Source: Eledone cirrhosa
Taxonomy: Eukaryota
Direction: 5' to 3'
Assembly: GCA_964016885.1 (NCBI GenBank)
Contig: OZ024743.1
Coordinates: 271,436,001-271,500,000, forward strand
Length of the DNA: 64,000 bases
Positions 5,992 to 35,169 of the stretch are shown in pieces. Numbering within the stretch: position 1 is the first letter of the stretch; every line of letters begins with the position of its first letter. The translations under genes were made by a program, and so were the position numbers. The notes beneath the pieces were generated by a model. That model was not told the origin of the DNA and searched no databases. It worked only from the letters and a program-made list of their open reading frames with translations.

Positions 5992-6126
5992 CTGAAATGA
6001 CATGAAAAAGAAGTGGAAAAGTATCCCAATAAGATTAAGGGAAGATAATGAATTTTCTGGTTGACAATTGGTACTGTTTTACAAGTGGTACTGCCAATTA
6101 ATGTGGTATATATATATATATATATC

Positions 6127-7752
6127 ACAGGGAGGAAGAGAAGGTATTCGAGTCAGATCCGAGGATAGGAAGAGGAAATGGCTAGACCATTTCAGGACCC
6201 TACTAGGAGAGCCACCCTCCACAGCCCAAAGCACTGGGGAGATCAGGCGGCTGTTTGAGGAACTGGATATTGAGACAGAGCCCTTCATCAGAGAGGAGCT
6301 TCAGAGAGACAAGAAGAGGATCAAGGAGGGCAAGGCTCATGGAGAAGATGGAGTGGCATCAGAGGTGATGAAGTGTGTGATTTTGATATCATCCTGGGGT
6401 TCAGTAACCAGGCACTGGAGAAAGGAGTTGCCCCGAATCAGTGGAGGATCAGTAACATCGTCCCAGTGCCAAAGAAAGGAGATCTCTCTAACACCAACAA
6501 CTACAGGGGGATCTCACTGACGTCACTTGTGGCAAAGACCCTCAACAGGATGATTCTTAACAGGATCCAGCCTGAGATGAAGAAGAAGCTCAGGGACAAC
6601 CAGAACGGCTTCAGAGAGGGAAGACCAACCACCAGTCACATCCTGATGCTGAGGAGGATATTAGAGGGAACTAGAGCAAAGTGCCTTTCTGCAGTCATGG
6701 TTTTCATTGACCATCGCTGCCTGATGAAGATCTTACAGGCTTATGGAATCCCCAAGAAGATAGTGGACCTGATATCACTGCTCTACACCACCAAAGCCCA
6801 AGTCATTACACCTGATGGGATGACAGAGTTCTTTGAGATACTGGCTGGAGTGCTCCAGGGAGATACATTGGCTCCCTACCTTTTTATCATCGTAGTGGAC
6901 TATTGTATGCGCCTTGCACTGGAGAAACTCTGGCTTTACTGTAGCACCGGCTCAGAGCAGGAGAGTTAAGGTGAAAAAGGTATCAGATGCTGAATTTGCC
7001 GACGACATAGTTTTGGTGACAAATACAGTGAAGGAGGCAGAGGATTTGATGCAGGAGGTTGAGACTGTGTCGATGAGTGTAGGGCTGAGAATGAATGAGA
7101 CTAAAACAAAATATCTGGTAGAGAATGTTGAGAAGCCAGAGGGGATCACTAATGTAGGCAGGAAGCCACTAGAATTGGTTGAGGACTTCCTGTATTTGGG
7201 AGCAAAGATTGGGAATATGGAAGATGATGTGGTTGAGAGGAAGAGCAAAGTCTGGGCGGCTGCCACAGCTTGAGATCGGTGTGGAAGTCGAACCTTCGTA
7301 AAGACCTGAAAATCCGCCTCTTCATTGCTGTAGTGGAGTCTGTGCTGCTGTACGGGTCTGAGACTTGGACACTGACCAAGAAACTCACTCAGATGGTGGA
7401 TGGGTGCTACACGAGAATGCTGAAGATGACTCTGAACATTAATCAGTATACACTGAGGATGAAAAACTCAGAAGTGTATGGGAGCCTCCCAAAAGTCAGC
7501 TCAAAAGTGACACAGAGGAGACTGAGGTTAGCTGGACATGCTCACCGACATCCAGAGTTGACATTGCACTCAGTGCTCCTGTGGGAGCCCCTACATGGAC
7601 ACACTGGAAGAGGAAGACCAAGGTTAACGTATGTTGATGCCCTAAGGACAGACACTGGTCTGTTGGAGACGCAGGACATGGCAGCGATAATGAGGGACAG
7701 AGACCTCTGGAGAGAACGCGTCCATGGATCACGGGAATTTTACCCGCCCTAG
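6127..7752 (+). mobile_element. RTE-clade LINE (second family), 5'-truncated RT region, inserted in (TA)n
   Basis: Frameshifted ORFs give IVPVPKKGDLSNTNNYRGISL, QNGFREGR, GVLQGDTLAPYLF, EFADDI, DFLYLG, VLLYGSETW, GRGRPRLTY, DRDLWR. TA repeats flank both ends. Confidence 0.9.
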
Positions 7753-7774
7753 ATATATATATGTATATCAAATG

Positions 7775-10645
7775 CGGTTCCTCCTGTTTAGCTGCTATTT
7801 CTAGCACACCTATCGAACACCATGAGGTTTCCCCTGTTTAGCTGATGTAGCTATTTCTAGCACTCCTATGGACCACCAAGAAATTTTCCCCCTATTCAGA
7901 TGATCTTTCTAGCACACGTATGGACCACAATGAAGTTCCCTTATTTAGCTGCTATTTCAGGCACACCTACGAACCACAATGTGATTTTCTTATTTAGCTG
8001 CTATGTCTACCAAGCCTATGGACAACCATGAGGTTCCCCTATTTAGCTGTTATTTCTAGTTCACCTGTAGACCAACATGAGGTTCCCCTGATTTAGTTGC
8101 TATTTCTAACACACCTATGCAACACCATGAGGTTCCCCTTAATTAGCTTCTGTTTCTAGGAAACAGCATGAGGTTCCCCCTGTTTAACTGATGAAGCTGC
8201 TATACTAGCACACCTATGGATCACCATAAAGTCCCCTTATTTAGCAACTATATCTAGCACACCTATGGACCACTATGAGGTATGAGGTTCTCCCTATTTA
8301 GCTGTTATTTCTAAAACTCATATGGCCCATTATGAGGAAACCTCTATTTTTCTGCTATTTCTAACATCCCTGTGGATTACCATGTGGTTCCTCCTATTTA
8401 GCTACTATTTCTAGCACACCTATAGACCACCATGAGGTTCCCCCTGTTTAGCTTATGTAGCTGTCATTTCTAGCACATCTATGAGCCACCATGATGTTCC
8501 CCTTATTTAGATGCTATTTCTAGCACACCTATGGACTGCCATGAGGTTCCAACTGTTTAGCTGTTGTAGCTGCAATTTCTAGTAGACCTATGGATCACCA
8601 TAAAGTTACCCCTTTTTAGCTACTATTTCAAGCACACCATAAGGATCCCCTATTTAGATGCTATTTCTAGCACACATATGGACCACCATGAGTTCCTCTA
8701 TTTAGCTGCTATTTCTAGTAAACGTATGGACCACAAAGAGTTTCGCGCTATTTGGCTGCAATTTCTAGCACACTTATAAACCACCATGAGGTTTTCCCCT
8801 ATTTAGCTGCTATTTCTAGCCCACCTATTGATCACCACGAGATTCCCTCTATTTGCCTGCTATTTCTAACACACCTACGGACCTCCATGAGATTCCCCTA
8901 TTTAGCTGCTATTTCTAGCAAACATATATGGACCACCATGAGGTTCCACCTGTTTAGCTGGACCACCATGCGGTTCCCCTATTTAGCTGCTATTTCTAGC
9001 ACAAATATGAACCATTATGAGGATCTCCCTATTTAGCCTAAGTAGATGTTATTTCTAGCACACCTATAAACCATCACGATGTTCCTCCTATTTAGATGCT
9101 ATTTCTAGCATGCCTATGGATAACCATCAGGTTCCCCTTTTAGCTGTCGTAGATTGTATTTCTAGAAAACCTATAGACCTCAATGAAGTTCCTTCTATTT
9201 AGCAGCTATTTTTAGCAGACCTACGGACCACCACGAGGTTTCCACCTTTAGCTGCTATTTCTAACACATCTATGGACCATTATAAGGTTCCCCCTCTTTA
9301 GCTGCTATTTCTAGCACACCTATGGACCATTATAAGGTTCCACCGATTTAGCTGCTATTTCTAGCACATCTATGGACCACTATAAAGTTCACCTATTTAG
9401 CTGCTATTTCTAGCAAACCTATGGATCACCATGAGGTTCCCCCTATTTAGCTGCTATTTCTAGAACACTTATGGATCACCATAATATTTACCTTATTTAG
9501 CATCAATTTCTAGCACACATTTTGACCACCATGAGGTTCCCTATGTTTATCTGGACAACCACGAGGTTCCCACTATTTAACTGCTATTTCTTGTACATCT
9601 ATGGACCACAATGATGTTCTAGATGTTTAGCTGATGTAGCTGCTATTTCTAGTATACATATGGATCACCACAAAGTCCCTCCTATTTAGCTGCTATTTTT
9701 AGCACACGTGTGGACGACTATTAGGTTCTGCATATTTAGCTGCTATTTCTAGCACACATTTGGACCACTAAAAGGTTCATCCCTTTTAGCTGCTATTTCT
9801 AGCAGACTTTGTTCTACTATGAGGTTCCACCATGTTAGCTGCTTTTACTAGCACACCCATGGACAACCATGTGGTTCACCCTATTTAGCAACTGTATCTA
9901 GAACTCATATGGTCGTTTATGAGGGTCCCACTTTTTAGCTTCTATTTCTAGCACACTTTTGGACCACCATAATGATCCCCCTGTTTAGCTGATTTTATTT
10001 GATTTAGCTGTTATTTCTATAACACATATGGGCCACCACAAGATTCCTTCTATTTAGCTGATATTTCTAGCTCACCTATGAACCACCGTGAGGTTCCCCC
10101 TATTTAGAAGCTATTTCTAGCACACGTATGTACCACCATGAAGTTCCCCCTATTTAGCTGATGTAACTGCTATTTCTAGCACACCTATGAACAATTATGA
10201 GGTTCCTCCTGTTTAGCTGTTGTAGCTGCTATTTCAAGCAGACCTATTGGCCAGTTTGAGTTCCCCCTATTTAGCTATTTTTCTTGCACACCTATAGACC
10301 ACCATGAGATTTCTTCTATTTAGCTGCTATTTCTAGAACACCTATGGACCACCATAAAGTTACCTTTATTTCGCTGCTATTTTTAGCATACCAATAGACC
10401 GCTATCAAGTTCCCCCTATTTAGCTGCTATTTCTAGCACACCTATGAATCACCATGAGTTTCCCTGACTTTAGCTGATGTAGCTGCTATTTCTAGCCCAT
10501 CTACGGAACACCATAACGTTACCTCTGTTTAGCTGATGTAGCTGCTATTACTAGCGCACTAATGGACAACCATAAGGTACACCATATTTAGCTGCTGTTT
10601 CTAGCACAATTATGGATCATCACGAGGTTCCCCTTATTCAGCTGC
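7775..10645 (+). repeat. Degenerate ~49-50-bp minisatellite, arm 1
   Basis: Consensus TTTAGCTGCTATTTCTAGCACACCTATGGACCACCATGAGGTTCCCCTA. Some units carry a 9-bp GATGTAGCT insertion. Confidence 0.95.
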
Positions 10646-10735
10646 AAACATGAAACAACTCTCTTTCACGTAGACACTGTTACCAATCATTTCCATATAA
10701 ACTTCTTACAGCTTATAAACAACCTCTTTGGATTT

Positions 10736-13700
10736 TAGCAGCTTAATAGGGGGAACCTCATGCTGGCTCGTAGCTGTGCAAGAAATAGAAGCTACATTAG
10801 CTATAGTCTATAGGTGTGCCAGAAATAGTAGCTAAAACGAGGTAAGTCATGGTGGCCCATAGGTGGGTTAGAAATAGCAGCTAAATAGGAGGGACCTCAT
10901 ATTGGTCCATGTGTGCTAGAAATAGCAGCTAAAAAGAGGGAATCTCATGGTGGTCCATAAGTGTGTTAGATATAGCAGCTAAATAGGAGGAAGCTGATGG
11001 TGGTCCATAGGTGTGCTAGAAATAGCAGCTAAATAGGTGGAAACTCATGGTGGTTTACAGGTGTGCTAGAAATAGCAGCTAAATAAGGGGAAACTTATAG
11101 TGGTCAAAAGTGTGTTAGAAATGGCAGCAAAATAAAATTACATGGTGATTCATAGGTGTGCTAGAAATAGTGGCTAAGTAGAGGAATCTGTTGCGCTAGA
11201 TTTAGGGGGAACGTCATGGTGGTCCAGTGGTATGGTAGAAATAGCAGCTGATTAGGGGGAACATTTTGGTGTTCCATAGGTGTGGTAGAAGTAGCATCAA
11301 AATAGTGGAAACCTCATCGTGGTTCATATGTGTGCTAGAAATAGCAACTAAATATTGGGAAACTTATGGTAGTTCATAGGTGTGCTAGAAATAGCAGCTA
11401 CATCAGCCAAACAGGGGATTATGTTGGTCCATAGGTTTATCAGAAATAGCAGCTAAATAGGGAGAACCTCATGGTGGTCCATAAATGTGCTAGAAACAGC
11501 AGCTAAATATTACGAAACTTATGGTGGTCTATAGGTGTGCTAGAATTAGCAACTACATAGTCTAAACATGGGAACCCCATGGTGTGCTAGAAACAGTAGC
11601 TACATGGGGGAACCCCATGGTGGTCTATAAGAATACTAGAAATAGCAGCTAAATGGGGGACTTCATGGTGGTCTATAAGTATGTTAGAAATAGCAGCTAA
11701 ATAGGGAGAACCTCATGGTGGTCCGTAGGTGTGATAGAAATAGCAGCCAAATAGGTGGTATCTCATGGTGGGCTAGAAATAGCAGCTAAATATGGGGAAC
11801 AACATGGTGGTCCATAAGTGTGCTATAAATTGCAGCTAAATAGTGGAACCTTATGATGGTCGATACGTGAGCTAGAAATTGCAGTTACATCAGCTAAACA
11901 GAAGAAAAAATTATGGTGGTCCATATGTGTGCTAGAAATAGCAGCTAAATACGGGGAACATCCTAGTGGTCCCTAGGTTTGCTAGAAATAGGAGCTAAAT
12001 AAGGGGTACTTCATGATTGTCTAAGTGATCTAGAAATAGAAACTACATTAGCTAAACAGGGGCAACGTCATGGTTGTCCATAAGTGTGCTAGAAATAGCA
12101 GCTAAATAGGACGTATAGTGGTCCATACGTCTGCTAGTAAAAGCAGCTAAATAGAGGGAATCTAATTGTGGGCCATAGGTGTGCTTGAAATCGCAGCTAA
12201 ATAGGGGGAATCTTTCGGTGGTCCATAGGTAAGCTAGTAATAGCAGCTAAATAGGGGAACCTACTAAAAATAGCAGCTAAACAAAGGGAGTGTCATGGTT
12301 AGCTTGAAATAAGGTCAACATGATGGTTGTCCATAGCTGTGCTAGAAATAGGATCTAAAAAGAAGGAACCTCATGATGGTCCATAGTTGCGCTAGAAATT
12401 GCAGCTACATCCGTTAATCAGAGCAAACCCCATGGTGGTTTATAGGTGTGCTAGAAAAAGTGTCTATAGGTGTCCATAGCAGCTAAATAGGAGTAACTTC
12501 AAGGTGGTCCATATGTGAGCTAAAAATATTAGCTAAATAGGTAAAGCCTCATATTGGTCCATAGGTGCGCTAGAAATAGTAGCTAAATAGGGGTAACCTA
12601 ATGGTAGTACATAGGTGTGCTACAAATACTAGCTAAAGAGGGGAACCACATGGTGGTTTATAGGTATGCTGGAAAAAGCAGCTACATCATCTAAACCGGG
12701 ATAACCACATGGTGGTCCACAGGTGTGCTAAAAATAGCAGCGAAATATTGGTTTTCTTAAAAAAGTGACATAGGAGTTCTAGAACATCGTGGTGTGCTAG
12801 AAATAGTAGCTAAATAGGGCAACCACATGGTGGTCTATAAGAGTGCTAGAAATAGCAGCTAAATAGGGGGAACATCATAGTGGTCCATAGGTGTGCTAGA
12901 AATAATAGCGAAATATGGGAACCTCATGGTGGTCCATACGTATACTAAATATAGTAGTTAAAAAGGGGAACCTTTTGCTGGTCCATAGGTGTGCTAGAAA
13001 TAGCAACTAAATAGCAGGACCTCTTGCTGGTCCATAGGTGTGCTAGAAATAGCTGCTAAATAGGGGGAACCTCTTGCTGGTTCATAGGTATGCTAGAAAT
13101 AGCAACTAAATAGGGGGACCTCTTGCTGGTCCATAGGTGTGCTAGAAATAGCTGCTAAATAGGGGGAACCTCTTGCTGGTGCATAGGTGTGCTAGAAATA
13201 GCAACTAAATAGGGGGACCTCTTGCTGGTCCATAGGTGTGCTAGAAATAGCTGCTAAATAGGGGGAACCTCTTGCTGGTCCATAGGTATGCTAGAAATAG
13301 CAACTAAATAGGAGGACCTCTTGCTGGTACATAGGTGTGCTAGAAATAGCTGCTAAATAGGGGGACCTCTTGCTGGTCCATAGGTGTGCTAGAAATAGCA
13401 ACTAAATGGGGGGACCTCTTTCTGGTCCATAAGTGTGCTAGAAATAGCTGCTAAATAGGGGGAACCTCTTGCTGGTCCATAGGTATGCTAGAAATAGCAA
13501 CTAAATAGGGGGACCTCTTGCTGGTCCATAGGTGTACTAGAAATAGCTGCTAAATAGGGGGAACCTCTTGCTGGTCCATAGGTATGCTAGAAATAGCAAC
13601 TAAATAGGGGGACCTCTTGCTGGTCCATAGGTGTGCTAGAAATAGCAACTAAATAGGGGGACCTCTTGCTGGTCCATAGGTGTGCTAGAAATAGCAACTA

Positions 13701-16005
13701 AATAGGGGGAACCTCTTGCTGGTCCATAGGTATGCTGGAAATAGCAACTAAATAGGGGGACCTCTTGCTGGTCCATATGTGTGCTAGAAATAGCTGCTAA
13801 ATAGGGGGAATCTCATGATAATCCACATGCATGCTAGAAATAGCAGCTAAAGAAACACATGGTGGTCCATAGGTGTGCCAGAAATAGCAGCTAAATAGGG
13901 GAACCTCATGGTGGTCCATATGTATACGAGATATAGCAGCTAAATAGGGGAACCTCTTGCTGATCCATAGGTGGGCTAGAAATAGCAGCTAAATAGGGGG
14001 AACCACATGGTAGTCTATAAGAATGCTAGAAATAGACATGGGAACCTCGTGGTGTGCTAGAAATAGTAGCTAAATAGTGGCAATCACATGGTGGTCTATA
14101 CGTGTGCTAGAAATAGCAGGTAAATAGGGGGAACGTCATAGTGGTCCATAGGTGTGCTAGAGATAGTAGCGAAATAGGGGAACCTCATGGTGGTCCATAT
14201 GTATGCTAGATATAGCAGCTAAATAGGGGAACCACATGGTGGTCCATAGGTATGCTAGAAATAGCAGCTAAATAGGGGGAACCTCTTGCTGGTCCATAGG
14301 TGTGCTAGAAATAGCAGTTAAAGAAACACATGGTGGTCCATAGGTGTGCTAGAAATAGCAGCTAAATAGAGGGAACCTCATGGTGGTCCATAGGTATGCT
14401 AGAAATAGCAGCTATATAGGTCCATCGGTGTGCTATAAATAGCAGTTAAAGAAACACATAGTGGTCCATAGGTGTGCTAGAAATAGCAGCTAAATAGGGG
14501 AACCTCATGGTGGTCCATAGGTGGGCTAGAAATAGTAGCTAAATAGGGGGAACCACATGGTAGTCTATAGATGTGCTAGAGATAGTAGCGAAATAGGGGA
14601 ACCTCATAATTGTCCATATGCACGCTAGAAATAGCAGCTAAATCTCTTGCTGGTTCATATTTGTGCTGGGGAACCTCATCGTGGTATATAGGTGTGCTAC
14701 ACATTCTAGCTAAAGAGAACTACATGGTAGATTTATTATGCTGGAAAAAGCAGCTACATTATCGGGATAATCACATGGTAGTCCACATGTGTGCTAAAAA
14801 TACCATCTACATAGTCTAAACATGGGAATCTCATAGTGTGCTAGAAATAGTAGCTAGATAGAGGGAACCACATAGTGGTCTATAAGAGTGCTAGCAATAG
14901 CAGCTAAATAGGGGAAACTTCATGGTGGTCGATAGGTATGCTAGAAATAGCAGCTAAATAGGGGAACTTCATGTTGGTCTGTATGCATGCTAGAAATAGC
15001 AGCAAAATAGGGGGAACCTCATGGTGGTCCATAGGTGTGTTAGAAATAACAACTAAGTAAGGGGAATCTCATCGTGGTACATAGTTGTGCTACAAATACT
15101 AGTTAAAGAGGGGAACCACATCGTGATTTATATGTTTGCTGGAAAAAGCAGCTACATCATCTAAACCAGGATAATCACACGGTAGCCCACAGATGTGCTA
15201 AATATAGCAGCTAAATATAGGTTTCCATAAAAAAGTGACATAGGAGTTCTAGTAACAGCAGCTAAATAGAAGGAAACTTATGATGGTCCATAGGTGTGCT
15301 AGAATTAGCAGCTACATAGTCTAAACATGGGAACCTCATGGTGTGCTAGAAACAGTAGCTAAATAGGGGGAACCACATAATGATGTATAAGAGTGCTAGA
15401 AATAGCAGCTAAATATGGGCAACGTCATGGTGGTCCATAAGTGTGCTAGAAATAGCAGCTAAATAGGGGGACCTCATGGTGGATTCTAAGTGTGTTATAA
15501 ATAGCAGCTAAATATGGGTAACCTCAGGGTTGTCCATAGGTGTGCTAAAAATTCTAATTACATCAGCTATCCAAAGGGAACCTTATCGTTGTCCATATGT
15601 TTGCTAGAAATAGCAGCTAAATAGGGGAACCTCATGGAGGTCCGTAGGTGTGTTAGAAATAGCAGGCAAATAGAGGGAATCACATGGTGATCAATAGGTG
15701 GGCTAGAAATAGCAGTTACATCTGCTTAACAGAAATCCTCATGGTTGTCCATAAGTGTGCTAGAAATACCAGCTACACCAGCTAAACAGTGGTAACCTCA
15801 TGGTGGTCCATACGTTTGCAAGATGTAGTAGCTATATAGGGGGAACTTCATGGTGGTCGATAGGTGTGCTAGAAATAGCAGCTAAATAGGGGAGCATCAT
15901 TGTGGTCCATATGTATGCTAGAAATAGCAGCTAAATAGAGGAACCTCTTGCTGGTCCATAAGTGTGCTAGAAATAGCAGCTAAATAGGAGAACTTTATGG
16001 TGGTG
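10736..16005 (-). repeat. Same ~49-50-bp minisatellite, arm 2, inverted
   Basis: Units read TAGGGGAACCTCATGGTGGTCCATAGGTGTGCTAGAAATAGCAGCTAAA, the reverse complement of arm 1. Confidence 0.95.
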
Positions 16006-16009
16006 CCAT

Positions 16010-16745
16010 CCGATATTGGGGCACGAAGCTATGGCTATACTGTGAGATGGGTTAGCCTCCTTGTATCATTGTAATTCAGCACTGGGTTCCAACTGGCTTC
16101 TTTGCATATTGGTGCCATCTAACTCCAGGCTCCCCCAAAAGGTGCTTTTGTACTAAAAATGCTTCGTCACATGGTAGAGTCACATGTGTTTAACCAGTTT
16201 AGTATCGAGAAGTGTCCGCCGCATGTAGATTGCCCGACTCCGAAACTGGTGTGCCACTGTGTGAGAGGTTTGGTACGGACAACTGGCCTATCCCTTCTCA
16301 TAGTGGCATCACCAGTGGCGGGCTTCGAAACTGTGGTTCCGCTGTGAGATTGATTTGGCGCAGCCAACTGGCCTGTGTCTCCTCATAGTGGAGTCACATG
16401 CATCCAATACCCGAACTGTGGGTCTGCTGTGTGAAGAGTTTGGTGTGGTCAACTAGCCTGTCCCTCCTCTTAGCAGTGAAATCTAGTCCCAGGCTGTCAG
16501 AGTCTAGTTTCGTATTAAGAAGTGTCCGTCGCATGGAGAGTGCTCCACTTTGAAACTGGGGTATCCTGTGAGAAGAGTTCGGCATGGTCAACCAGCCTGT
16601 CCCTTCTCATAGTGGTATCACTGCCAGAGCAAGGTGCGACACATAGTCAACCCTACCAGACTTGCCTCCGGGCATGGATGACCTGTCTAACCCATACAAA
16701 CGTGAAAAAATTGACATTAAACAGAAATGATGATGATAATAATAA
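16010..16745 (+). mobile_element. Putative non-autonomous retroelement with internal degenerate repeats and an RTE-like 3' tail
   Basis: The 3' end TCTAACCCATACAAACGTGAAAAAATTGACATTAAAC...(GAT)n resembles the RTE tail at 4579-4626. It has four internal AACTGGCCT...CTCATAGTGG-like repeats. Confidence 0.5.
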
Positions 16746-16849
16746 TATACTGGAGAATAAGCATTGAGTGGTCACTTTGATGAACAGTAACTTGACATTA
16801 CAATCCTTAAACTATATATATATACATAGTTACTTGAGTGTGATGATTA

Positions 16850-17037
16850 GGTGGATTGGCAGTATCGGTAGAGGGTCGGACGCCATGCTTTCCAGCATAG
16901 TTATGTCCCTTTACGATCTGAGTTCAAATCCCGCCGAGGTTGACTTTGCCTTTCATCCTTACGGGATCGATAAAATAAAGTACCAGTAATGCACTGGGTA
17001 ATTGCTGGCCTTGTGCCTAAAGTAGAAACAATTATTA
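16850..17037 (+). mobile_element. tRNA-derived SINE
   Basis: Closely similar to 2949-3149, with A and B boxes. Confidence 0.85.
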
Positions 17038-17445
17038 GAACATGTATATGTTCTAATAATGGAGATACATGCTTTAGCTGATAATGACCATGAAACTAGC
17101 AGTTTTTAGGATATATAACTTATACCATGTTTTGATATATATATATATACAGTAAAAACAAATAACGAAACGAAATTAAATTTCGTTTCGTTTGTAACTC
17201 ACTTTTGTATGACTGACGCTTAAACAATTAAGTTAAAAATGTACATCCACATATGTATACTGAAATACTAGTATGCATATGAATACACACACGTGTACAT
17301 ATGTAGATGTACCGAGTTTTCACTGGTCACTTTACTGTGAGTGTCCAGCTATTCTGTATGTAGACACACAGACAAACCGGTTCTTAGAGTCATACTGGTT
17401 TTTGAGGAAACACCTTTCCTCTATTCTCCAGAAAGCCAGACAAGG

Positions 17446-17490
17446 AATATTGGACTAGTTTCGATGTTGTTACATCTCATCAGCAATATT
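17446..17490 (-). ncRNA. Type I hammerhead ribozyme, copy in the inverted unit
   Basis: Exact reverse complement of the motif at 17934-17978. Confidence 0.88.
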
Positions 17491-17933
17491 TACCTATCTT
17501 CCGGCTTCTCTAGAGAATCGTGAAAGCACATATCGTTATATGCTTTTTCTATGAAAATTAGTAGTGGGCAGACCAGAACCGGTTTGTCTGTGTGTCTACA
17601 TACAGAATAGCTGGACACTCACAGTAAAGTGACCAGTGAAAACTCGGTACATCTACATATGTACACGTGTGTGTATTCATATGCATACTAGTATTTCAGT
17701 ATACATATGTGGATGTACATTTTTAACTTAATTGTTTAAGCGTCAGTCATACAAAAGTGAGTTACAAACGAAACGAAATTTAATTTCGTTTCGTTATTTG
17801 TTTTTATCGTCTCCGTTGAACCGGTACGTACTCACGCTCTATGCAAATTGGTCTGCCCACTACTAATTTTCATAGAAAAAGCATATAACGATATGTGCTT
17901 TCACGATTCTCTAGAGAAGCCGGAAGATAGGTA

Positions 17934-17978
17934 AATATTGCTGATGAGATGTAACAACATCGAAACTAGTCCAATATT
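17934..17978 (+). ncRNA. Type I minimal hammerhead ribozyme, first of 12 plus-strand copies (cores at 17941+465n, n=0..11, last at 23056)
   Basis: AATATTG (stem I)-CTGATGA (core)-GATGT AACA ACATC (stem-loop II)-GAAA-C TA GT-C (stem III and GUC cleavage triplet, cut after 17971)-CAATATT (stem I'). Confidence 0.92.
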
Positions 17979-20900
17979 CCTTGTCTGGCTTTCTGGAGAA
18001 TAGAGGAAAGGTGTTTCCTCAAAAACCAGTATGACTCTAAGAACCGGTTTGTCTGTGTGTCTACATACAGAATAGCTGGACACTCACAGTAAAGTGACCA
18101 GTGAAAACTCGGTACATCTACATATGTACACGTGTGTGTATTCATATGCATACTAGTATTTCAGTATACATATGTGGATGTACATTTTTAACTTAATTGT
18201 TTAAGCGTCAGTCATACAAAAGTGAGTTACAAACGAAACGAAATTTAATTTCGTTTCGTTATTTGTTTTTATCGTCTCCGTTGAACCGGTACGTACTCAC
18301 GCTCTATGCAAATTGGTCTGCCCACTACTAATTTTCATAGAAAAAGCATATAACGATATGTGCTTTCACGATTCTCTAGAGAAGCCGGAAGATAGGTAAA
18401 TATTGCTGATGAGATGTAACAACATCGAAACTAGTCCAATATTCCTTGTCTGGCTTTCTGGAGAATAGAGGAAAGGTGTTTCCTCAAAAACCAGTATGAC
18501 TCTAAGAACCGGTTTGTCTGTGTGTCTACATACAGAATAGCTGGACACTCACAGTAAAGTGACCAGTGAAAACTCGGTACATCTACATATGTACACGTGT
18601 GTGTATTCATATGCATACTAGTATTTCAGTATACATATGTGGATGTACATTTTTAACTTAATTGTTTAAGCGTCAGTCATACAAAAGTGAGTTACAAACG
18701 AAACGAAATTTAATTTCGTTTCGTTATTTGTTTTTATCGTCTCCGTTGAACCGGTACGTACTCACGCTCTATGCAAATTGGTCTGCCCACTACTAATTTT
18801 CATAGAAAAAGCATATAACGATATGTGCTTTCACGATTCTCTAGAGAAGCCGGAAGATAGGTAAATATTGCTGATGAGATGTAACAACATCGAAACTAGT
18901 CCAATATTCCTTGTCTGGCTTTCTGGAGAATAGAGGAAAGGTGTTTCCTCAAAAACCAGTATGACTCTAAGAACCGGTTTGTCTGTGTGTCTACATACAG
19001 AATAGCTGGACACTCACAGTAAAGTGACCAGTGAAAACTCGGTACATCTACATATGTACACGTGTGTGTATTCATATGCATACTAGTATTTCAGTATACA
19101 TATGTGGATGTACATTTTTAACTTAATTGTTTAAGCGTCAGTCATACAAAAGTGAGTTACAAACGAAACGAAATTTAATTTCGTTTCGTTATTTGTTTTT
19201 ATCGTCTCCGTTGAACCGGTACGTACTCACGCTCTATGCAAATTGGTCTGCCCACTACTAATTTTCATAGAAAAAGCATATAACGATATGTGCTTTCACG
19301 ATTCTCTAGAGAAGCCGGAAGATAGGTAAATATTGCTGATGAGATGTAACAACATCGAAACTAGTCCAATATTCCTTGTCTGGCTTTCTGGAGAATAGAG
19401 GAAAGGTGTTTCCTCAAAAACCAGTATGACTCTAAGAACCGGTTTGTCTGTGTGTCTACATACAGAATAGCTGGACACTCACAGTAAAGTGACCAGTGAA
19501 AACTCGGTACATCTACATATGTACACGTGTGTGTATTCATATGCATACTAGTATTTCAGTATACATATGTGGATGTACATTTTTAACTTAATTGTTTAAG
19601 CGTCAGTCATACAAAAGTGAGTTACAAACGAAACGAAATTTAATTTCGTTTCGTTATTTGTTTTTATCGTCTCCGTTGAACCGGTACGTACTCACGCTCT
19701 ATGCAAATTGGTCTGCCCACTACTAATTTTCATAGAAAAAGCATATAACGATATGTGCTTTCACGATTCTCTAGAGAAGCCGGAAGATAGGTAAATATTG
19801 CTGATGAGATGTAACAACATCGAAACTAGTCCAATATTCCTTGTCTGGCTTTCTGGAGAATAGAGGAAAGGTGTTTCCTCAAAAACCAGTATGACTCTAA
19901 GAACCGGTTTGTCTGTGTGTCTACATACAGAATAGCTGGACACTCACAGTAAAGTGACCAGTGAAAACTCGGTACATCTACATATGTACACGTGTGTGTA
20001 TTCATATGCATACTAGTATTTCAGTATACATATGTGGATGTACATTTTTAACTTAATTGTTTAAGCGTCAGTCATACAAAAGTGAGTTACAAACGAAACG
20101 AAATTTAATTTCGTTTCGTTATTTGTTTTTATCGTCTCCGTTGAACCGGTACGTACTCACGCTCTATGCAAATTGGTCTGCCCACTACTAATTTTCATAG
20201 AAAAAGCATATAACGATATGTGCTTTCACGATTCTCTAGAGAAGCCGGAAGATAGGTAAATATTGCTGATGAGATGTAACAACATCGAAACTAGTCCAAT
20301 ATTCCTTGTCTGGCTTTCTGGAGAATAGAGGAAAGGTGTTTCCTCAAAAACCAGTATGACTCTAAGAACCGGTTTGTCTGTGTGTCTACATACAGAATAG
20401 CTGGACACTCACAGTAAAGTGACCAGTGAAAACTCGGTACATCTACATATGTACACGTGTGTGTATTCATATGCATACTAGTATTTCAGTATACATATGT
20501 GGATGTACATTTTTAACTTAATTGTTTAAGCGTCAGTCATACAAAAGTGAGTTACAAACGAAACGAAATTTAATTTCGTTTCGTTATTTGTTTTTATCGT
20601 CTCCGTTGAACCGGTACGTACTCACGCTCTATGCAAATTGGTCTGCCCACTACTAATTTTCATAGAAAAAGCATATAACGATATGTGCTTTCACGATTCT
20701 CTAGAGAAGCCGGAAGATAGGTAAATATTGCTGATGAGATGTAACAACATCGAAACTAGTCCAATATTCCTTGTCTGGCTTTCTGGAGAATAGAGGAAAG
20801 GTGTTTCCTCAAAAACCAGTATGACTCTAAGAACCGGTTTGTCTGTGTGTCTACATACAGAATAGCTGGACACTCACAGTAAAGTGACCAGTGAAAACTC

Positions 20901-23324
20901 GGTACATCTACATATGTACACGTGTGTGTATTCATATGCATACTAGTATTTCAGTATACATATGTGGATGTACATTTTTAACTTAATTGTTTAAGCGTCA
21001 GTCATACAAAAGTGAGTTACAAACGAAACGAAATTTAATTTCGTTTCGTTATTTGTTTTTATCGTCTCCGTTGAACCGGTACGTACTCACGCTCTATGCA
21101 AATTGGTCTGCCCACTACTAATTTTCATAGAAAAAGCATATAACGATATGTGCTTTCACGATTCTCTAGAGAAGCCGGAAGATAGGTAAATATTGCTGAT
21201 GAGATGTAACAACATCGAAACTAGTCCAATATTCCTTGTCTGGCTTTCTGGAGAATAGAGGAAAGGTGTTTCCTCAAAAACCAGTATGACTCTAAGAACC
21301 GGTTTGTCTGTGTGTCTACATACAGAATAGCTGGACACTCACAGTAAAGTGACCAGTGAAAACTCGGTACATCTACATATGTACACGTGTGTGTATTCAT
21401 ATGCATACCAGTATTTCAGTATACATATGTGGATGTACATTTTTAACTTAATTGTTTAAGCGTCAGTCATACAAAAGTGAGTTACAAACGAAACGAAATT
21501 TAATTTCGTTTCGTTATTTGTTTTTATCGTCTCCGTTGAACCGGTACGTACTCACGCTCTATGCAAATTGGTCTGCCCACTACTAATTTTCATAGAAAAA
21601 GCATATAACGATATGTGCTTTCACGATTCTCTAGAGAAGCCGGAAGATAGGTAAATATTGCTGATGAGATGTAACAACATCGAAACTAGTCCAATATTCC
21701 TTGTCTGGCTTTCTGGAGAATAGAGGAAAGGTGTTTCCTCAAAAACCAGTATGACTCTAAGAACCGGTTTGTCTGTGTGTCTACATACAGAATAGCTGGA
21801 CACTCACAGTAAAGTGACCAGTGAAAACTCGGTACATCTACATATGTACACGTGTGTGTATTCATATGCATACTAGTATTTCAGTATACATATGTGGATG
21901 TACATTTTTAACTTAATTGTTTAAGCGTCAGTCATACAAAAGTGAGTTACAAACGAAACGAAATTTAATTTCGTTTCGTTATTTGTTTTTATCGTCTCCG
22001 TTGAACCGGTACGTACTCACGCTCTATGCAAATTGGTCTGCCCACTACTAATTTTCATAGAAAAAGCATATAACGATATGTGCTTTCACGATTCTCTAGA
22101 GAAGCCGGAAGATAGGTAAATATTGCTGATGAGATGTAACAACATCGAAACTAGTCCAATATTCCTTGTCTGGCTTTCTGGAGAATAGAGGAAAGGTGTT
22201 TCCTCAAAAACCAGTATGACTCTAAGAACCGGTTTGTCTGTGTGTCTACATACAGAATAGCTGGACACTCACAGTAAAGTGACCAGTGAAAACTCGGTAC
22301 ATCTACATATGTACACGTGTGTGTATTCATATGCATACTAGTATTTCAGTATACATATGTGGATGTACATTTTTAACTTAATTGTTTAAGCGTCAGTCAT
22401 ACAAAAGTGAGTTACAAACGAAACGAAATTTAATTTCGTTTCGTTATTTGTTTTTATCGTCTCCGTTGAACCGGTACGTACTCACGCTCTATGCAAATTG
22501 GTCTGCCCACTACTAATTTTCATAGAAAAAGCATATAACGATATGTGCTTTCACGATTCTCTAGAGAAGCCGGAAGATAGGTAAATATTGCTGATGAGAT
22601 GTAACAACATCGAAACTAGTCCAATATTCCTTGTCTGGCTTTCTGGAGAATAGAGGAAAGGTGTTTCCTCAAAAACCAGTATGACTCTAAGAACCGGTTT
22701 GTCTGTGTGTCTACATACAGAATAGCTGGACACTCACAGTAAAGTGACCAGTGAAAACTCGGTACATCTACATATGTACACGTGTGTGTATTCATATGCA
22801 TACTAGTATTTCAGTATACATATGTGGATGTACATTTTTAACTTAATTGTTTAAGCGTCAGTCATACAAAAGTGAGTTACAAACGAAACGAAATTTAATT
22901 TCGTTTCGTTATTTGTTTTTATCGTCTCCGTTGAACCGGTACGTACTCACGCTCTATGCAAATTGGTCTGCCCACTACTAATTTTCATAGAAAAAGCATA
23001 TAACGATATGTGCTTTCACGATTCTCTAGAGAAGCCGGAAGATAGGTAAATATTGCTGATGAGATGTAACAACATCGAAACTAGTCCAATATTCCTTGTC
23101 TGGCTTTCTGGAGAATAGAGGAAAGGTGTTTCCTCAAAAACCAGTATGACTCTAAGAACCGGTTTGTCTGTGTGTCTACATACAGAATAGCTGGACACTC
23201 ACAGTAAAGTGACCAGTGAAAACTCGGTACATCTACATATGTACACGTGTGTGTATTCATATGCATACTAGTATTTCAGTATACATATGTGGATGTACAT
23301 TTTTAACTTAATTGTTTATATACA

Positions 23325-23325
<1 letters not shown>

Positions 23326-23395
<70 letters not shown>

Positions 23396-23437
23396 TATAT
23401 ATACACACATATACATATGCATATGTGTGTGTGTGTG
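23326..23437. repeat. (TA)n/(CA)n/(TG)n compound microsatellite
   Basis: Seen directly. It continues the TA tract interrupted by the 465-bp array. Confidence 0.9.
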
Positions 23438-23586: not shown

Positions 23587-23765
23587 TAATTGTTTCTACT
23601 TTTGGCACAAGGCCAGCAATTACCCAGAACATTACTAGTACATTATTTTATCGACTCCGTAAGGATGAAAGGCAAAGTTAACCTCGGCGGGATTTGAACT
23701 TAGATCGTAAAGGGACGTAACTATGGTTGAAAGCATGGCGTCCGACCCTCTACCGATACTGCCAA
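23587..23765 (-). mobile_element. tRNA-derived SINE
   Basis: Reverse complement of the 16850 copy. Confidence 0.85.
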
Positions 23766-23972
23766 ATATATAATGACAGATATGTATATATAAATCGAGT
23801 ATATAAGATTGGAGTTGATGTGATTATATGTACTGGAGTTGATATGATTGACTAACGTATTAGAACCAGAATTTTAGCATGGTCAAGCCAAATGATCAGA
23901 ATTAGCAATACAATAATAAAAGAATATATAAAACATTTCATATTATTTTCATTGATCATTGATCAGAGGATA

Positions 23973-24160
23973 GTGGATTGGCAGTATCGGTAGAGGGTCG
24001 GACGCCATGCTTTCTAGCATAGAATTACGGCCCTTGCCATTCTAGGTTCAAATCCCGCCGAGGTGAACTTTGCCTCTCATCCTTACGGGGTCGATAAAAT
24101 AAAGTACCAGTAATGCACTGGGTAATTGCTGGCCTTGTACCAAAAGTAGAAACAATTATT
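23973..24160 (+). mobile_element. tRNA-derived SINE with a 19-bp flanking direct repeat
   Basis: SINE body, with ATTATTTTCATTGATCATT at 23942-23960 and 24155-24173. Confidence 0.85.
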
Positions 24161-25800: not shown

Positions 25801-25842
25801 ATAAATAATAATAATAATAGTAATAATAAGATTAATAATAAC

Positions 25843-26388
25843 CTTTGTACAAAATCTTCTTTGATCGAAAGAGAGTAGCCATTCTGTACCAGAAATGTTT
25901 GTTGAGTTTGGAATCAAAGTAGTATTCAGATTCAAGAGCATTCATCTGTTCTTTAACAAAACTAAATGCATCATTGATAATACTGATGCAGATATTTAAC
26001 AGAATGATTGAGACTATGATGGAATAGAGGAAAAACACCAGATTTGATGTTACATTGTCTAATCTGAAAGTCTCCTTGAATTTGCCCATGGCGAGGAAAA
26101 TACGGAAGAGAGCCAAATAGGTAGATTGTAAATTGATGAAATATATAGAGACATTATTGAAAGTTATGTGAATGGCAATGGCAAACGCTGTCATTACCAA
26201 GACAAGGATAACACTGAATGAAAGAATTGATGGTAATGATATGATGATACTGGCCTTCATCAAGAACAGGTGGTAATTCAAGCTGAGTGGTTGTAATAGC
26301 TTTACAGCACAGAGTATCACACTGAATGAGAGACCAGCAAAATACAGCTCAACACTGGATAACATTGAGCTCCCCGATACATATGCAT
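25843..26388 (-). CDS. Polycystin (PKD1L/PKD2, TRPP family) cation-channel domain exon: last transmembrane helices, pore region and start of the C-tail
   Basis: TTTCAG| acceptor and G|GTTATT donor, 546 nt, phase 1/1. VKLLQPLSLNYHLFLM...AFAIAIHITF...FFLYSIIVSIILLNICISIINDAF matches the polycystin S4-S6 pattern. Confidence 0.88.
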
Positions 26389-26559
26389 CTGAAACAATAA
26401 AATTCCATATATACATACATATATACGTATATAAGTATACATACATACATGCTAAGAGTATTGCAATCACTTGTCAGATTATAGAGTTTGGTGCACTTTC
26501 ATGCTATGGCCAGCCACACAAACCTGTAACATATCCTTACCAAGTAATGCCTGTGCTTT

Positions 26560-27119: not shown

Positions 27120-30100
27120 AACAGTGTTGCGATCAAATGTGGCTTTTTAGCCCAGCCAATGATCTAAAATGTCTTGCAGAGTTGGCAACCAAAACATTCA
27201 CTGGGAATAGTCGGCTGTGGTTGGATTTCATGTACTTTTGCATGTCGTTTGAGCCTTCCTGCTGATTTACATTCTCTACCACATTCTTGGCAGGCATGAT
27301 GAGTAGCATCTCCAACAGCAGCCTGGTAGTCAACCATTGGTCTCACTTTATGACTGCGAAGATGACTTTCGAGTCCAGCTTTGCTGAGGCAGAGTCTTGC
27401 ACAAATGCTGCATGTCAGCACCATAGGAGGACCTTCGCTGTCTGGAAATGCAACAGTAATGCCCTTCCTCACATCCCTCTTTACTTTCTCGTATGCAATT
27501 CTAGATGCCTTAAAGGCAACTTTCCCCTCATATACAGTCTTTCTCCAATTATTACGATCAGTAGCAACATTTTCCCATGTATCATCAGAGATGCTAGCGT
27601 CTGTCAAAGAAGCTTTCAACGAATCCTTATACCTCTTTTTTGGTTTATGTGGAGGTCGTTTTCCTTTAACTAACTCTCCATAAAAGAGTTGTTTTGGTAT
27701 TCTAGAATCCTTCATCCTGGCAAGGTGACCACTCCAACAGAGTCTTTGCTTAAGCACAAGAGCTTCTATACTGTCACACAGAGAGCTTTCCAAAATCTCA
27801 ACATCACTGATGTGGTTCCTCCAGTGAACGCCATGGATCCGTCGGAGACACATCTGATGAAAACGCTCCAATTGTTTAAGGGGGTGTCGATATGTGACCC
27901 AGGTCTCGTAGGCATAAAGAAGAGAAGAAAGCACACCTGCCTTGTAAACCATTACCTTTGTCTTCTTGCATATGTCTCGCTGACCCCAGAGTCGCTTTTC
28001 TAACTTTCCGAAAGCATCACATGCTTTCCTAATCCTGAGTGGTTGCTGTATCAATTGACAGTGCTTCCCAAGTAGACAAACTGATCAACCACTCCAAGTC
28101 GTTTACCATACACATAGATATTTGGCTCACTGTATTGCTTACCAGAGGCAGGTTGGTACATGACAATGGTTTTCTTGAGACTGACAGTCAATCCTAGGGC
28201 AGTGCAAGCATCAGAAAATGCATTCAAAATGTGCTGCATATCACTCTCTATGTGTGCTACAAGATCGCAACCATCTGTATACAAAATGTCTCTTATGATT
28301 GATGTAAATATTTTTGTTTTTGCAGCAAAGCGCCTGATGTTAAATATGCTGCCTGAGGTTTGATAAACACCATGCTCGCAATTCCTGAATGCAATAGAGA
28401 AAACCATTGCAAAGTATATGGCAAACAGAGTCGGTGCTGGAATATTCTATTTTTTACTGAGATAGGCTCCAACATGTTACCTCTGACATTAACCCAAGCC
28501 TTCATGTCATCATGGAAAGACCTAACCAAAGCAAGGAACTTATCAGGGCAACCAAGTTTCTGGAGAACCTTCCACAATGCATTTCTGTTAACAGTATCGA
28601 AAGCTTTTGTCAGAAACATGATACAGATCCAAACGTTGTTCCATGCACTTCTACTGGAGCTATCTAGCTGAGAAGATCATATCAGTAGTGCCGCGTCCAG
28701 CATGAAAACCAGCATGAAAACACAATCTGCAATGTGTGTCAGCAGACGGTCCAGAAGCACCCTACATACAATTTTTCCTCTGACAGAAAGCAATGATATA
28801 CCTCTGTAGTTTCCACAATCATTCTTGTAACCCTATCCCTTGTACAAGACCACCATTACTGCATCTCTCCAGTCCTCAGGTATGGATTCACTAACCCATA
28901 TCCTGCCAAACAAAGAGTGAAGATGTTGCAGAAGTCTCTCACCACCATATTGTAGAAGCTCTGCCTGTATGTCATCCATACCTGGAGACCTTCCACTGTT
29001 CAGCTTCGAGATAGCTACCGCAACCTCCACAAGCGTCAGGGGTTCTGCGAGAGCTACTTTCACAGGTTTTTCAAGAATGAGCTTGAGGAAATCTTCATTG
29101 ACGACAGACGGCTGATTCAAAAGTTCATCAAAGTCCTCTCGCCACCTTCATAGAATTCTTTGCCATCCTTGCTGCGAAGTGGTGTCACCAGAGAAGAAGA
29201 CGGTCCATAAACTTCATGCAAGAGACTGTACAACAGCTTTGCATTATTGGAATCTGATGCAGTTTGTATCTCATCAGCCTTCTCACTCCACCACTGATCC
29301 TTCATCTGAGAAAGACTGCCTAACACGTGATTTCACATCCTTGAGTTCCTTATGCAACATATTCTTCTCCTGTGGTTTTGCTGTCAAGTAGCGTGACAGA
29401 GTACACCTCTTATCAGCCAACAAGTCATCTATATGTTCATCATTCTCATTAAACCAGTCTTGCTGTTTTCTCTGCACCAATCCCAGAACACGCCTGCCTA
29501 CATCATAAATCGACTTTTTAAGGGTCGGCCAATCCTCACCAAGATCTGCAACATGCATCTCTTCTCGCAATGTCCTCTTCCCATTTTTATCTCTAAGATG
29601 AGCAGCATTCAATCTCCTGGGTAGGGTAACACCAGGGGCCTGGATTTTATGTTTAGTGATTAGTTTCACTTTTGCGCATACCTGGCAGTGGTCTGTCCAG
29701 CACTCAGCTCCATGAAGAGCATCCTGACAAGGACGTAGTCCAAAAGATGCAGGATGCATCCATGTGGTCTTAAATTTGTTCTTTTGCTGGAACATGGTGT
29801 TGATAACACACAGATCCAGCTCCTCTCCTCACACATCTGCAGCAGGATCATACCATTGTTGTTACACTTTCCCACCCGATGCCTTCTGATTACATTCCAT
29901 GTGTTAAAATCCTTACCCACTCTAGCATTAAAATCACCAAGCATGATGACCTTTTCTGCCTGAGGGGTATTTCTTAAAACACCTTTCAAGGCATGGTAAA
30001 AAGACACTTTTTCTTCATCGACAGAATTCATAGTTGGAGCATACACACTCACCAGGGTCGCATATCTTCCTTTGTCCAGCAGAATTCTCATGGACATAAG

Positions 30101-30505
30101 ACGCTCACTAATCCCCATTGGGAATTCTAATTTATCCACAAGAGCAATACTAACAGCAAATGCTACCCCAGACTCTCTTCTGGTTTCTTCATCTCTTCCT
30201 TTCCAGAATAATGTATATTCTTTACAAAATTCTGTAAGATGACCATCTCCAGCTAACCTCGTCTCAGATAAAGCTACGATGTCAAGATAGTAACATCGAG
30301 GCTCCTTTGCAACAAGACCAGTCCTTCGTTCAGGACATTCCAAAGAATCCCTGTCAAGCAGCGTCCATACATTCCAGCAGCCAATATTAAATGCCTTGTT
30401 TGGCTCTACTACAGTGGCACGATGACGAGCGGGCCCAGGCTGTGATACCCTGGGGCCCCTGCTCTTATTGCCAATTATCTCTTTTATATTGTTTTGGAAC
30501 ATCAT
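27120..30505 (-). mobile_element. Near full-length decayed RTE (BovB-like) LINE with C-terminal C2H2 zinc fingers
   Basis: APE (GCWNVWTL, VALSETRL, SVYAPT, LGDFNARVG, CWTDH), RT (TKAFDTVNR, degenerate LYTDG, FVYLGS), C-terminus (LLYAYETW, LCWSGHLARM, RIPKQLFYGEL) and CxxC...HxxxH fingers. Many frameshifts. Confidence 0.92.
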
Positions 30506-30526
30506 TGAATTTTGAAAAAAAAAAAG

Positions 30527-30646
30527 TAATAATAATAATAATAATTGTTTCTACTTTTGGCACAAGGCCAGCAATTATCCAGTGTATTACTGGTACTTTA
30601 TTTTATCGACCCCGTAAGGATGAAAGGCAAAGTGAACCTCGGCGGG
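30527..30646 (-). mobile_element. tRNA-derived SINE, 3' half only
   Basis: Reverse complement of the SINE 3' portion with an (AAT)n tail. Confidence 0.8.
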
Positions 30647-34082: not shown

Positions 34083-34523
34083 TCTGTTACATCTTGGATG
34101 TTCCACTCAATCAGAGGGTTGAAAGGGTGTTTGTTCATGACTATATAGGCACCTAAAACCCTTAGTGAAAACACGGTTACCACGTCATACTCGATTGTGA
34201 GTGACAGCAGTAGTTCGAACATTTATAATGTTATTAATAGCAATTCACCTCAAACATTTAGATATTTTGTCTGACAAAATAGACTGAGAAATTTACTCTT
34301 AAGATCCTGTAATGATTTAGCAGAAAATATCTAAAAACAGGTTTGTTAATTCAAATGTATATAATATTTTTACTACAAAACAGATTGTTGTGAAAATTTG
34401 CAGTATTAGAGTAAAGACTTTAATTGTTAATGTTATGCAGTCATAGTGCTGTTTTTTTTTTTCAATAATATATTGTTAATGTAGCTTCATACGTTACAGG
34501 ACATTAAAATTAAAACAGTTTAC

Positions 34524-35114: not shown

Positions 35115-35169
35115 CTGTATCAAAGAAAAGTAGTGATTGCGATATGATTATAATATTTACTGAAAAGTG

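Follow-up and report, generated by a model that had tools for sequence, protein, structure and literature searches.

Fixed paired ends of a two-armed hammerhead array in Eledone cirrhosa suggest insertion by Penelope-like elements

A stretch of 64,000 nt from contig OZ024743.1 of Eledone cirrhosa (GCA_964016885.1), here called the window, contains a 6.2-kb tandem array whose units run in two opposite directions from an internal point, raising the question of how such an arrangement was written into the genome. How animal retrozymes move is a stated open question in the literature, as is why insertions of Penelope-like elements (PLEs) come as tandem and inverted copies that have a tail on one side only.

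Every 465-bp unit of the array carries a type I hammerhead motif, which matches the Rfam model HH9 with an E value of 2e-8 and 38.9 bits, below the gathering score of 52; at the gathering level, Rfam gave zero matches in the window. Cleavage is predicted after unit position 397, and a related family of 64% identity retains the hammerhead core, its stem changes being paired (read by eye). The GC content of the unit is 0.35-0.37, no stop-to-stop frame of at least 150 aa is present at 17-23 kb, and the array lacks the ORF with reverse transcriptase (RT) and GIY-YIG domains expected of an autonomous PLE. The predicted circular fold of the unit reaches -153 kcal/mol, compared with -96 +/- 6 kcal/mol in shuffles (z -9.8; 0 of 100 shuffles as stable). 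With tandem hammerhead units that are a few hundred bp long, low GC, no coding frame, a self-paired predicted circle and a flanking duplication of 11 bp (more than 4 bp), the array is, judged by its sequence, a non-coding hammerhead repeat of the non-LTR retrozyme class.

The array is bounded by two copies of TATATACAGTA, which is absent from the remainder of the 64 kb on both strands, does not extend beyond 11 bp as a direct repeat and is overlapped by the element end by TA on the left and right alike (Table 1). The informative part of this duplication is a CAG interruption, in register at both junctions, and informative matches arose 0.07 times per 55 shuffled left/right flank pairs (30 shuffles; 55 other closed loci). 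The inverted arm matches the unit exactly across the unit boundary (465/1) and has a single A at 17575 in common with the direct arm, which comprises 12 whole units plus 164 bp, with a single mismatch among its near-identical units. Both outer ends are 3' ends in the hammerhead sense, at units 232 and 164, and neither is the cut site, whereas the inner ends lie at unit 275 in the inverted and unit 1 in the direct arm. The duplication, the inversion with its shared base and the position of the outer ends, all claimed in a sequence-only reading of this DNA, were thus confirmed. That the units number 12 depends on the assembly, because no listed read or contig piece spans either junction; four sequencing runs mapped to 16700-17620 were swamped by the flank repeat, and three of them had no depth on the unique flank at 17072-17133.

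Table 1. Features of the array and its target site, in positions of the window.
Feature	Position	Strand	Basis
Left target-site duplication, 11 bp, last TA common with the element end; end of a short (TA)n tract	17144..17154	+	sequence match
Inverted arm of 423 bp, running from unit 275 to unit 232 in the ribozyme sense, with priming site B at its outer end; one crossing of the ribozyme cut site	17153..17575	-	exact match to unit
Inverted-arm hammerhead, from its core to the cut site (unit 367-397)	17453..17483	-	position derived from exact match
Direct arm of 12.35 x 465 bp with a single mismatch, at 21409; priming site A (unit 164) at the outer end and unit 1 at the inner end	17575..23318	+	unit comparison
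Predicted 13-bp hairpin between sites A and B ('tail' region), in every unit	17767..17795	+	circular fold
Type I hammerhead of the first direct unit, present once in each unit; cleavage predicted after 17971; stem III palindromic, 2 bp	17923..17994	+	Rfam HH9
Right target-site duplication, first TA common with the element end	23317..23327	+	sequence match
(TA)n microsatellite, the target tract	23328..23418	.	sequence

The array belongs to a family of about two thousand copies in TA microsatellites, mostly with two head-to-head arms. Arms end at two fixed sites about 70 nt apart, site A at unit 156-164 and site B at unit 227-233, and exact site-B ends adjoining (TA)n number 1,932 genome-wide (control 0). 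Among the first 19 loci examined, A was coupled with B in all 13 that were two-armed; 46 of 59 closed B-anchored loci finish at A and 0 at B, while 44 of 50 A-anchored loci finish at B, 2 at A and 4 at neither. Permuted ends, which the sequence-only reading had suggested looking for at other loci, were rejected since the ends sit genome-wide at these two fixed sites. An informative duplication was found in only 5 of 55 loci, 4 of them in periodic microsatellites, and most pure TA targets are uninformative; the duplication in one locus (L090) is 56 bp long. When unselected arms were considered, 68 of 83 cross the ribozyme cut site (30 at least twice) and 52 are longer than one unit, with a median of 589 bp, and the earlier proposal of an RNA template continuous across the cut site is supported by a family pattern repeated hundreds of times. 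The lengths of the two arms are uncorrelated (rho 0.07; 35 unselected loci). Inner ends are spread over the unit and are joined mostly with a few shared bases; their mild enrichment just 3' of the cut site (15 vs 6.9 expected, P 0.004, in a window chosen post hoc) also fits linear RNAs with a cleaved 5' end.

In L1 twin priming, the second target strand primes internally, giving an inverted segment and a duplication; a poly(A) tail is required, the second site is variable and the arms are adjacent, non-overlapping parts of one linear RNA. The array, in contrast, has both sites fixed and arms that overlap many times. The description of the array as twin-priming-like holds for the inverted arm and the priming by both strands, but not for an L1-type event, which we rejected: there is no poly(A), the inner end of the direct arm at unit 1 does not abut the inverted priming site at 232, and inner ends are spread over the unit.

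The same two-armed, fixed-end anatomy was observed for three protein-coding Penelope-like families of this genome, namely a Neptune-type family (11 of 11 loci with both ends found; 20 loci in all), a Hydra-type family (3 of 3; 44 in all) and the family P2 (7 loci by script and 2 resolved by eye). Clade labels were assigned from motifs given in PMC8557442, and Pfam returned 0 families for 2 PLE proteins. The retrozyme shows what characterizes PLE-mobilised insertions, with two fixed internal 3' ends, a one-sided tail, an inverted 5'-truncated head-to-head copy and a (TA)n target, suggesting that the PLEs of this genome, ending likewise at two fixed sites, insert it. In vitro, both DNA strands are cut and extended by a purified PLE protein, which begins copying at two internal RNA sites that define the tail (PMC11167929). 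The sequence-only view of one insertion in which both target strands primed internally, away from the cut site, agrees with these in vitro data and with hundreds of family copies. Furthermore, a retrozyme arm is joined straight to a PLE piece, with no TA between, at four loci (L211, L031, L067, L092) that span two PLE families: a P2 arm ending at A meets a retrozyme arm ending at B in L211, and L092 couples B with the Neptune downstream site. Each of these joins could also arise by a later PLE insertion with deletion. By blastn the retrozyme unit has no DNA similarity to the three PLE families, so there is no pLTR homology among those three; a core regex found no hammerhead inside Hydra-type or Neptune-type elements, and an Rfam scan of three Hydra-type loci found none at E 0.01. 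A DNA search with the Neptune-type 3' end returned no matches though copies exist, common words being skipped by the search. P2, a very young PLE of 1,280 aa, is the best candidate for the helper.

We consider it probable that the array was inserted by two-site target-primed reverse transcription by a PLE, with both cut strands primed on one RNA, most plausibly a circular monomer. Array transcripts would self-cleave at unit 397 and the monomers circularise, and the GIY-YIG endonuclease would cut the TA tract with the 7-11 nt stagger suggested by the duplication, leaving a 3' end on each strand. One strand would then be extended from B and the other from A through 1-3 nt of TA microhomology, a scheme whose end pattern is seen at the loci and whose chemistry is presumed. 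Both copies pass the ribozyme cut site, often many times and with the same sequence type, presumably by circling one RNA, before they would be joined at the unrelated inner points observed. Arms may lengthen later by DNA-level duplication, as seen at some older loci. Rolling-circle copying would follow from this scheme, and the 12 units with one differing base fit it, as they fit a homogeneous linear multimer or a recent DNA-level expansion.

The same two-site priming could have acted on a linear transcript, long and incompletely cleaved, from a homogeneous source array, making a circle unnecessary, which we regard as unlikely but worth weighing. Stem III is merely 2 bp long, short-stem-III ribozymes cleave poorly as monomers and multimeric RNAs build up in salamanders (PMC7229834), and hammerhead cleavage is dispensable for PLE insertion in vitro (PMC11167929). 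Long source arrays are present in the genome, an excess of inner ends lies close to the cut site, and the retrozyme arm of L211 also begins close to it. However, the sequence type is common to both arms of a locus, which differ by a median of 0.5% compared with 5.6% between loci, the own partner arm being strictly closest in 21 of 27 cases. Loci are homogeneous internally, yet 15 types occur among 25 loci, which points to a one-unit bottleneck at most generations. Of the 12 genomic copies of a variant in L043, none lies outside this locus, and its two arms hold 9 and 3 of them; a linear template would have to come from an unassembled source in which 9 or more variant units were adjacent and which left no further daughter. 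Another variant (L041) is confined to two loci genome-wide, while 3 of 5 variants tested genome-wide are not private and are sub-lineage markers with 284, 152 and 188 matches. A fixed 815-nt dimer circle considered for L038 was rejected, as the skip does not recur every 815 nt.

Growth at the DNA level bears on the number of units. Repeating variant blocks are limited to one arm in L054, L082 and L104, where one arm continues for ~33 kb (L104), and long arms are thus not all RT products; the direct arm in the window holds a single singleton. It is improbable, in our judgement, that a short two-armed insertion of 1-2 units came first and most of the 12 units were added later, satellite-like, through unequal crossing-over or slippage, even if the one-arm blocks, the short median of unselected arms and the preference of Li et al. 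for local amplification through unequal crossover (bioRxiv 10.64898/2026.07.22.740005) speak for it. Very young loci are already long and identical in both arms (L065, 18 units without substitutions; C6, 29 units with 2 singletons; L037, 15 units with 1 singleton), the first insertion must still have exceeded one unit, as 52 of 83 unselected arms do, and the fixed paired ends are left unexplained.

It is very improbable that the inverted arm arose when the first cDNA folded back and primed its own copying, the route suggested for head-to-head repeats of PLEs (PMC3846280), and this reading was rejected: symmetric inner ends at internal palindromes occur in 5 of 48 loci against a chance expectation of 3.2 (P 0.21), offsets are scattered across the unit (275 vs 1 in the array studied here) and the stop of the second arm at the other fixed site is left unexplained. 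That inversion and duplication are assembly artefacts or microsatellite chance is hardly credible, for although no independent read spans the junctions and inverted repeats within TA tracts are difficult to assemble, dozens of loci, as well as three unrelated PLE families, repeat the same anatomy with different inner junctions, and informative flank matches are very rare in shuffles.

Extending two-site priming on a circle beyond this locus, we tentatively propose, as a possibility short of a firm expectation, that a dimer of the PLE RT/endonuclease holds a single circular retrozyme RNA by its two fixed sites, that two simultaneous rolling-circle reverse transcriptions from both strands of the cut (TA)n write head-to-head multimers in one event, that one-site-per-strand priming explains in general why PLEs have an inverted repeat and a one-sided tail, and that the retrozyme-P2 chimeras name the helper. 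If true, genomes would here document that a telomerase-related RT carries out rolling-circle reverse transcription in an animal germ line, and satellites would have a route by which they are seeded as ready-made arrays. The family provides some two thousand insertions whose start sites are defined, along with natural chimeras and, in the same genome, candidate helpers that are young and intact; a single purified protein and a single 465-nt circle would thus suffice to test both questions posed at the outset. The retrozyme class, the PLE link and the circle model are already published; insertion-level evidence of the present kind was not found in print.

In the model of Cervera and de la Pena (2020), circRNA is reverse-transcribed to multimeric cDNA, with PLEs as candidate helpers (PMC7229834; PMC7761336). 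The metazoan non-LTR retrozymes of these two reports resemble the array in that their units are arranged in tandem, low in GC and non-coding and each carry a type I hammerhead, in a highly self-paired predicted circle and in a duplication of more than 4 bp, the 465-bp unit lying slightly above their 150-450 bp. What sets the family apart from them is its pair of head-to-head arms, the two fixed sites at which these end in pairs, and its targeting of (TA)n; inverted arms, fixed ends and a helper motif are not described in the available portions of PMC7229834. Li, Clavereau and Pollet (2026) regard animal retrozymes as non-autonomous PLE derivatives mobilised by PLE machinery, based on co-occurrence and pLTR homology in Xenopus; in the part of that preprint at hand, arrays are put down to unequal crossover, and insertion ends, arms and chimeras are not analysed (bioRxiv 10.64898/2026.07.22.740005). 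Compared with the Xenopus retrozymes, pLTR homology was not found here among the three PLE families, whereas the insertion anatomy is common with PLEs. Non-autonomous Chlamys elements such as MRC1 are likewise non-coding PLE passengers with multicopy head-to-tail insertions, but their 3' sequence is common with the helper and hammerheads are mostly absent (PMC8557442). In insertion anatomy the family resembles EN+ PLEs (Poseidon PAc, PMC11167929; Neptune, Hydra and Naiad, PMC8557442; Adineta Penelope, PMC3846280), with an inverted 5'-truncated copy, a one-sided tail, partial tandems, insertion into (TA)n, duplications of 8-10 bp, cutting and extension of both strands, and two internal start sites. 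The retrozyme differs in having no ORF, a tail of ~70 nt instead of 30-40 and arms that are multimers of a small unit. Finally, the in vitro work of Frangieh (2024; PMC11167929) revealed no difference between the strands in start site, whereas the genome studied here shows a near-strict one-A-one-B arrangement per insertion.

The array in the window (G000:C4:271436001-271500000, in a 3.0-Gb assembly) is real and belongs to a large retrozyme family that has been active recently. The sequence TATATACAGTA was found in the 64-kb window solely at 17144 and 23317, and the target-site duplication, inverted arm and direct array that the sequence-only reading had described were all confirmed, with a single A common to both arms. 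The duplication, which is legible thanks to a CAG interruption, suggests a stagger of 7-11 nt that would have given both strands a 3′ end, each end leading into one arm as cDNA, and 12 passes of reverse transcription are plausible here.

Arms of the array, other features of the window, and related loci elsewhere in the genome (A and B, the two outer-end sites of the unit; PLE, Penelope-like element; P2 and Neptune, PLE families)
Feature	Position	Description
Inverted arm	17153-17575	Exact match to unit positions 275 to 232
Direct arm	17575-23318	12.35 units of 465 bp, one mismatch
Short interspersed repeat	16850-17037, 23600-23765, 23970-24155	Very abundant, flanks the array; we take it to resemble octopod SINEs
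Broken LINE-type endonuclease/RT frames	469-2340, 6065-7752, 27164-30550	Several
Diverged 49-50 bp tandem repeat	7772-16009	Two opposite orientations, switch near 10700-10800
Open frames, minus strand	25832-26473, 34510-35265	Presumably resemble exons of a polycystin/PKD-type channel gene
59-bp satellite	35188-64000	~489 copies, 94% matches, strong G skew, continues past window end
Retrozyme locus L104	G000:C1:81846867-81880635	One arm ~33 kb, heterogeneous units, 7-unit repeat block
Second hammerhead tandem family (L161; also L172, L174, L176, L180)	L161 ~170-2400	~64-74% identity to unit, period ~500-540 bp, paired stem changes; cut site GUA, where the unit has GUC
P2 locus L212 and relatives	G000:C1:154522001-154532000	Very young PLE family, many inverted two-armed copies; ORF carries Asn/His/Thr-rich N-terminal insert
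Chimera L211		P2 arm ending at A, joined head to head to a retrozyme arm of 24 units that ends at B
Chimera L031		B arm and P2, interrupted by contig end
Chimera L067		B arm and Neptune piece ending at Neptune upstream site
Chimera L092		B arm and Neptune piece ending at Neptune downstream site

With the unit as query, 30 of 513 candidates yielded 307 matches, and an exact 30-mer (B end plus TA) occurred 1,932 times in the genome (reversed control, 0). In a first sample of 19 loci (18 listed loci and the window), 13 had two head-to-head arms, and each of these 13 combined an outer end at unit 159-164 (site A) with one at 230-233 (site B). The remaining six comprised four one-armed loci, one whose second arm, ending at A, measured 17 bp, and one joined to a PLE. 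An unselected B-anchored sample comprised the first 60 stretches among the 30-mer matches listed. Of these loci, 55 closed within 7.5 kb, and a script placed the far end at A in 42 and at another site in one, with five one-armed, seven unclear and no B+B pair among the 55. Manual reading assigned one locus (L087) to A, left L076 doubtful and identified L078 and L079 as duplicates, while extension of five open loci closed four, all at A. The search with the A end, run to detect A+A pairs and covering up to C1:88 Mb, yielded 50 loci, 26 of them already within the B sample (hand-matched); the far end of the other 24 was B in 18, A in two and neither in four. The permuted ends anticipated from the sequence were therefore not borne out by this catalogue: with A+B in 46 of 59 B-anchored and 44 of 50 A-anchored loci (A+A in two), the ends lie at fixed sites and occur as a pair. 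Almost every copy lies within (TA)n, which hides most duplications; informative ones were present in 5 of 55 loci, versus 0.07 in shuffled flank pairs, four within periodic microsatellites and one clear (56 bp, at the one-armed L090).

Units within an insertion are closely alike. Across the arms of 25 loci with at least three whole units they differed by 0.70 substitutions, versus a median of 12 between loci (one locus, L044, contributes a false unit spanning the junction), and in 27 loci the two arms diverged by a median of 0.5%, versus 5.6% to other loci, with the partner arm strictly nearest in 21. Among five variants fixed in both arms and tallied genome-wide, one was private to a single locus (12 of 12 matches in L043, 9 and 3 by arm), another was confined to two loci, and three instead marked larger sub-lineages. 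The simplest reading is a one-unit bottleneck followed by amplification inside the insertion, as a monomer circle predicts. The ribozyme cut site was crossed by 68 of 83 unselected arms, and at least twice by 30 (not counting 4 A arms, every A arm below 40 bp and 11 B arms affected by internal rearrangement, duplication or overlap with a palindrome), and both arms exceeded one unit in 12 of 35 unselected two-armed loci. There is one type I hammerhead per unit; it matches Rfam HH9 with E 2e-8 and 38.9 bits, short of the gathering score (52), and its cut is predicted to fall after unit 397. A relative 64% identical, elsewhere in the genome, retains the core with stems I and II altered pairwise, as judged by eye. 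The predicted circular fold reaches -153 kcal/mol, versus -96 ± 6 for 100 shuffles. We lean towards a circular monomer as the template. Internal jumps were seen in arms of three loci (L037, L038, L039), and an identical 115-nt skip (unit 263-376) on two of several passes in L038 suggests repeated RT skipping across one structured region.

Some loci have gained units by growth at the DNA level or by misassembly, as indicated by repeating variant blocks restricted to one arm in L054, L082 and L104, the last a retrozyme insertion turning into satellite. Unit 398-425 holds a mild excess of inner ends (15 versus 6.9 expected, P 0.004; for the unselected set, 10 versus 5.1; interval picked after inspection), which is compatible with linear templates whose 5′ end was made by cleavage, with a circle reopened by its own ribozyme or with stalling.

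Three PLE families that encode proteins with a C-terminal GIY-YIG domain share the anatomy of the retrozyme insertions, including a tail, the stretch between the two start sites, at one end only. The Hydra-type family (713 aa; motifs RWR, DKT, CxCX5C; tail ~88 nt) showed A/B-type pairing in 3 of 3 two-ended copies among 44 stretches, and the Neptune-type family (784 aa; GLKF, DKG, CX4CxxC, CCHH; tail 41 nt) in 11 of 11 among 20 loci. P2 (~1,280 aa; tail ~58 nt, at the ORF start), with dozens of copies identical across the query and a minimal hammerhead in its terminal repeat (pLTR), was paired in 7 of 20 loci by script, and two apparent B+B cases were A+B on inspection by eye. Published accounts describe canonical hammerheads as general in the Hydra and Neptune clades; a regular-expression search found no hammerhead core in Hydra-type and Neptune-type elements with intact ORFs (L145, L168), and DNA similarity between the unit and any of the three families was undetectable. 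Retrozyme and PLE are joined without intervening TA at four loci (the chimeras in the table), which fits shared machinery; each join could also stem from later insertion and deletion. P2 is a possible helper, put forward tentatively. The 48 inner junctions comprised 31 with a few-base overlap, 6 blunt and 11 with extra bases. Fold-back priming, which predicts symmetric inner ends, was rejected (5 of 48 versus 3.2 expected). The inversion likened to twin priming in the sequence-only reading stands, but under L1 twin priming a poly(A) tail and arms adjacent to one another would be expected, and neither is present. We consider PLE-type priming from both strands very probable.

PMC7229834 and PMC7761336 propose that reverse transcription turns retrozyme circRNAs into multimers and name PLEs as candidate helpers, and a 2026 preprint (bioRxiv 10.64898/2026.07.22.740005) argues for a PLE origin via co-occurrence and pLTR homology. 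PMC8557442 and PMC3846280 describe, for PLEs, inverted copies, tails on one side only and insertion targeted to TA, and PMC11167929 describes two internal start sites with extension of both strands in vitro. In the literature searched, mostly open-access main texts, no description of retrozyme insertions with two arms, of A/B end pairing or of chimeras between retrozymes and PLEs was found. The retrozyme class and the general model are already known; the insertion anatomy that links the retrozyme to PLE two-site priming, together with the single-template evidence, appears to be new.
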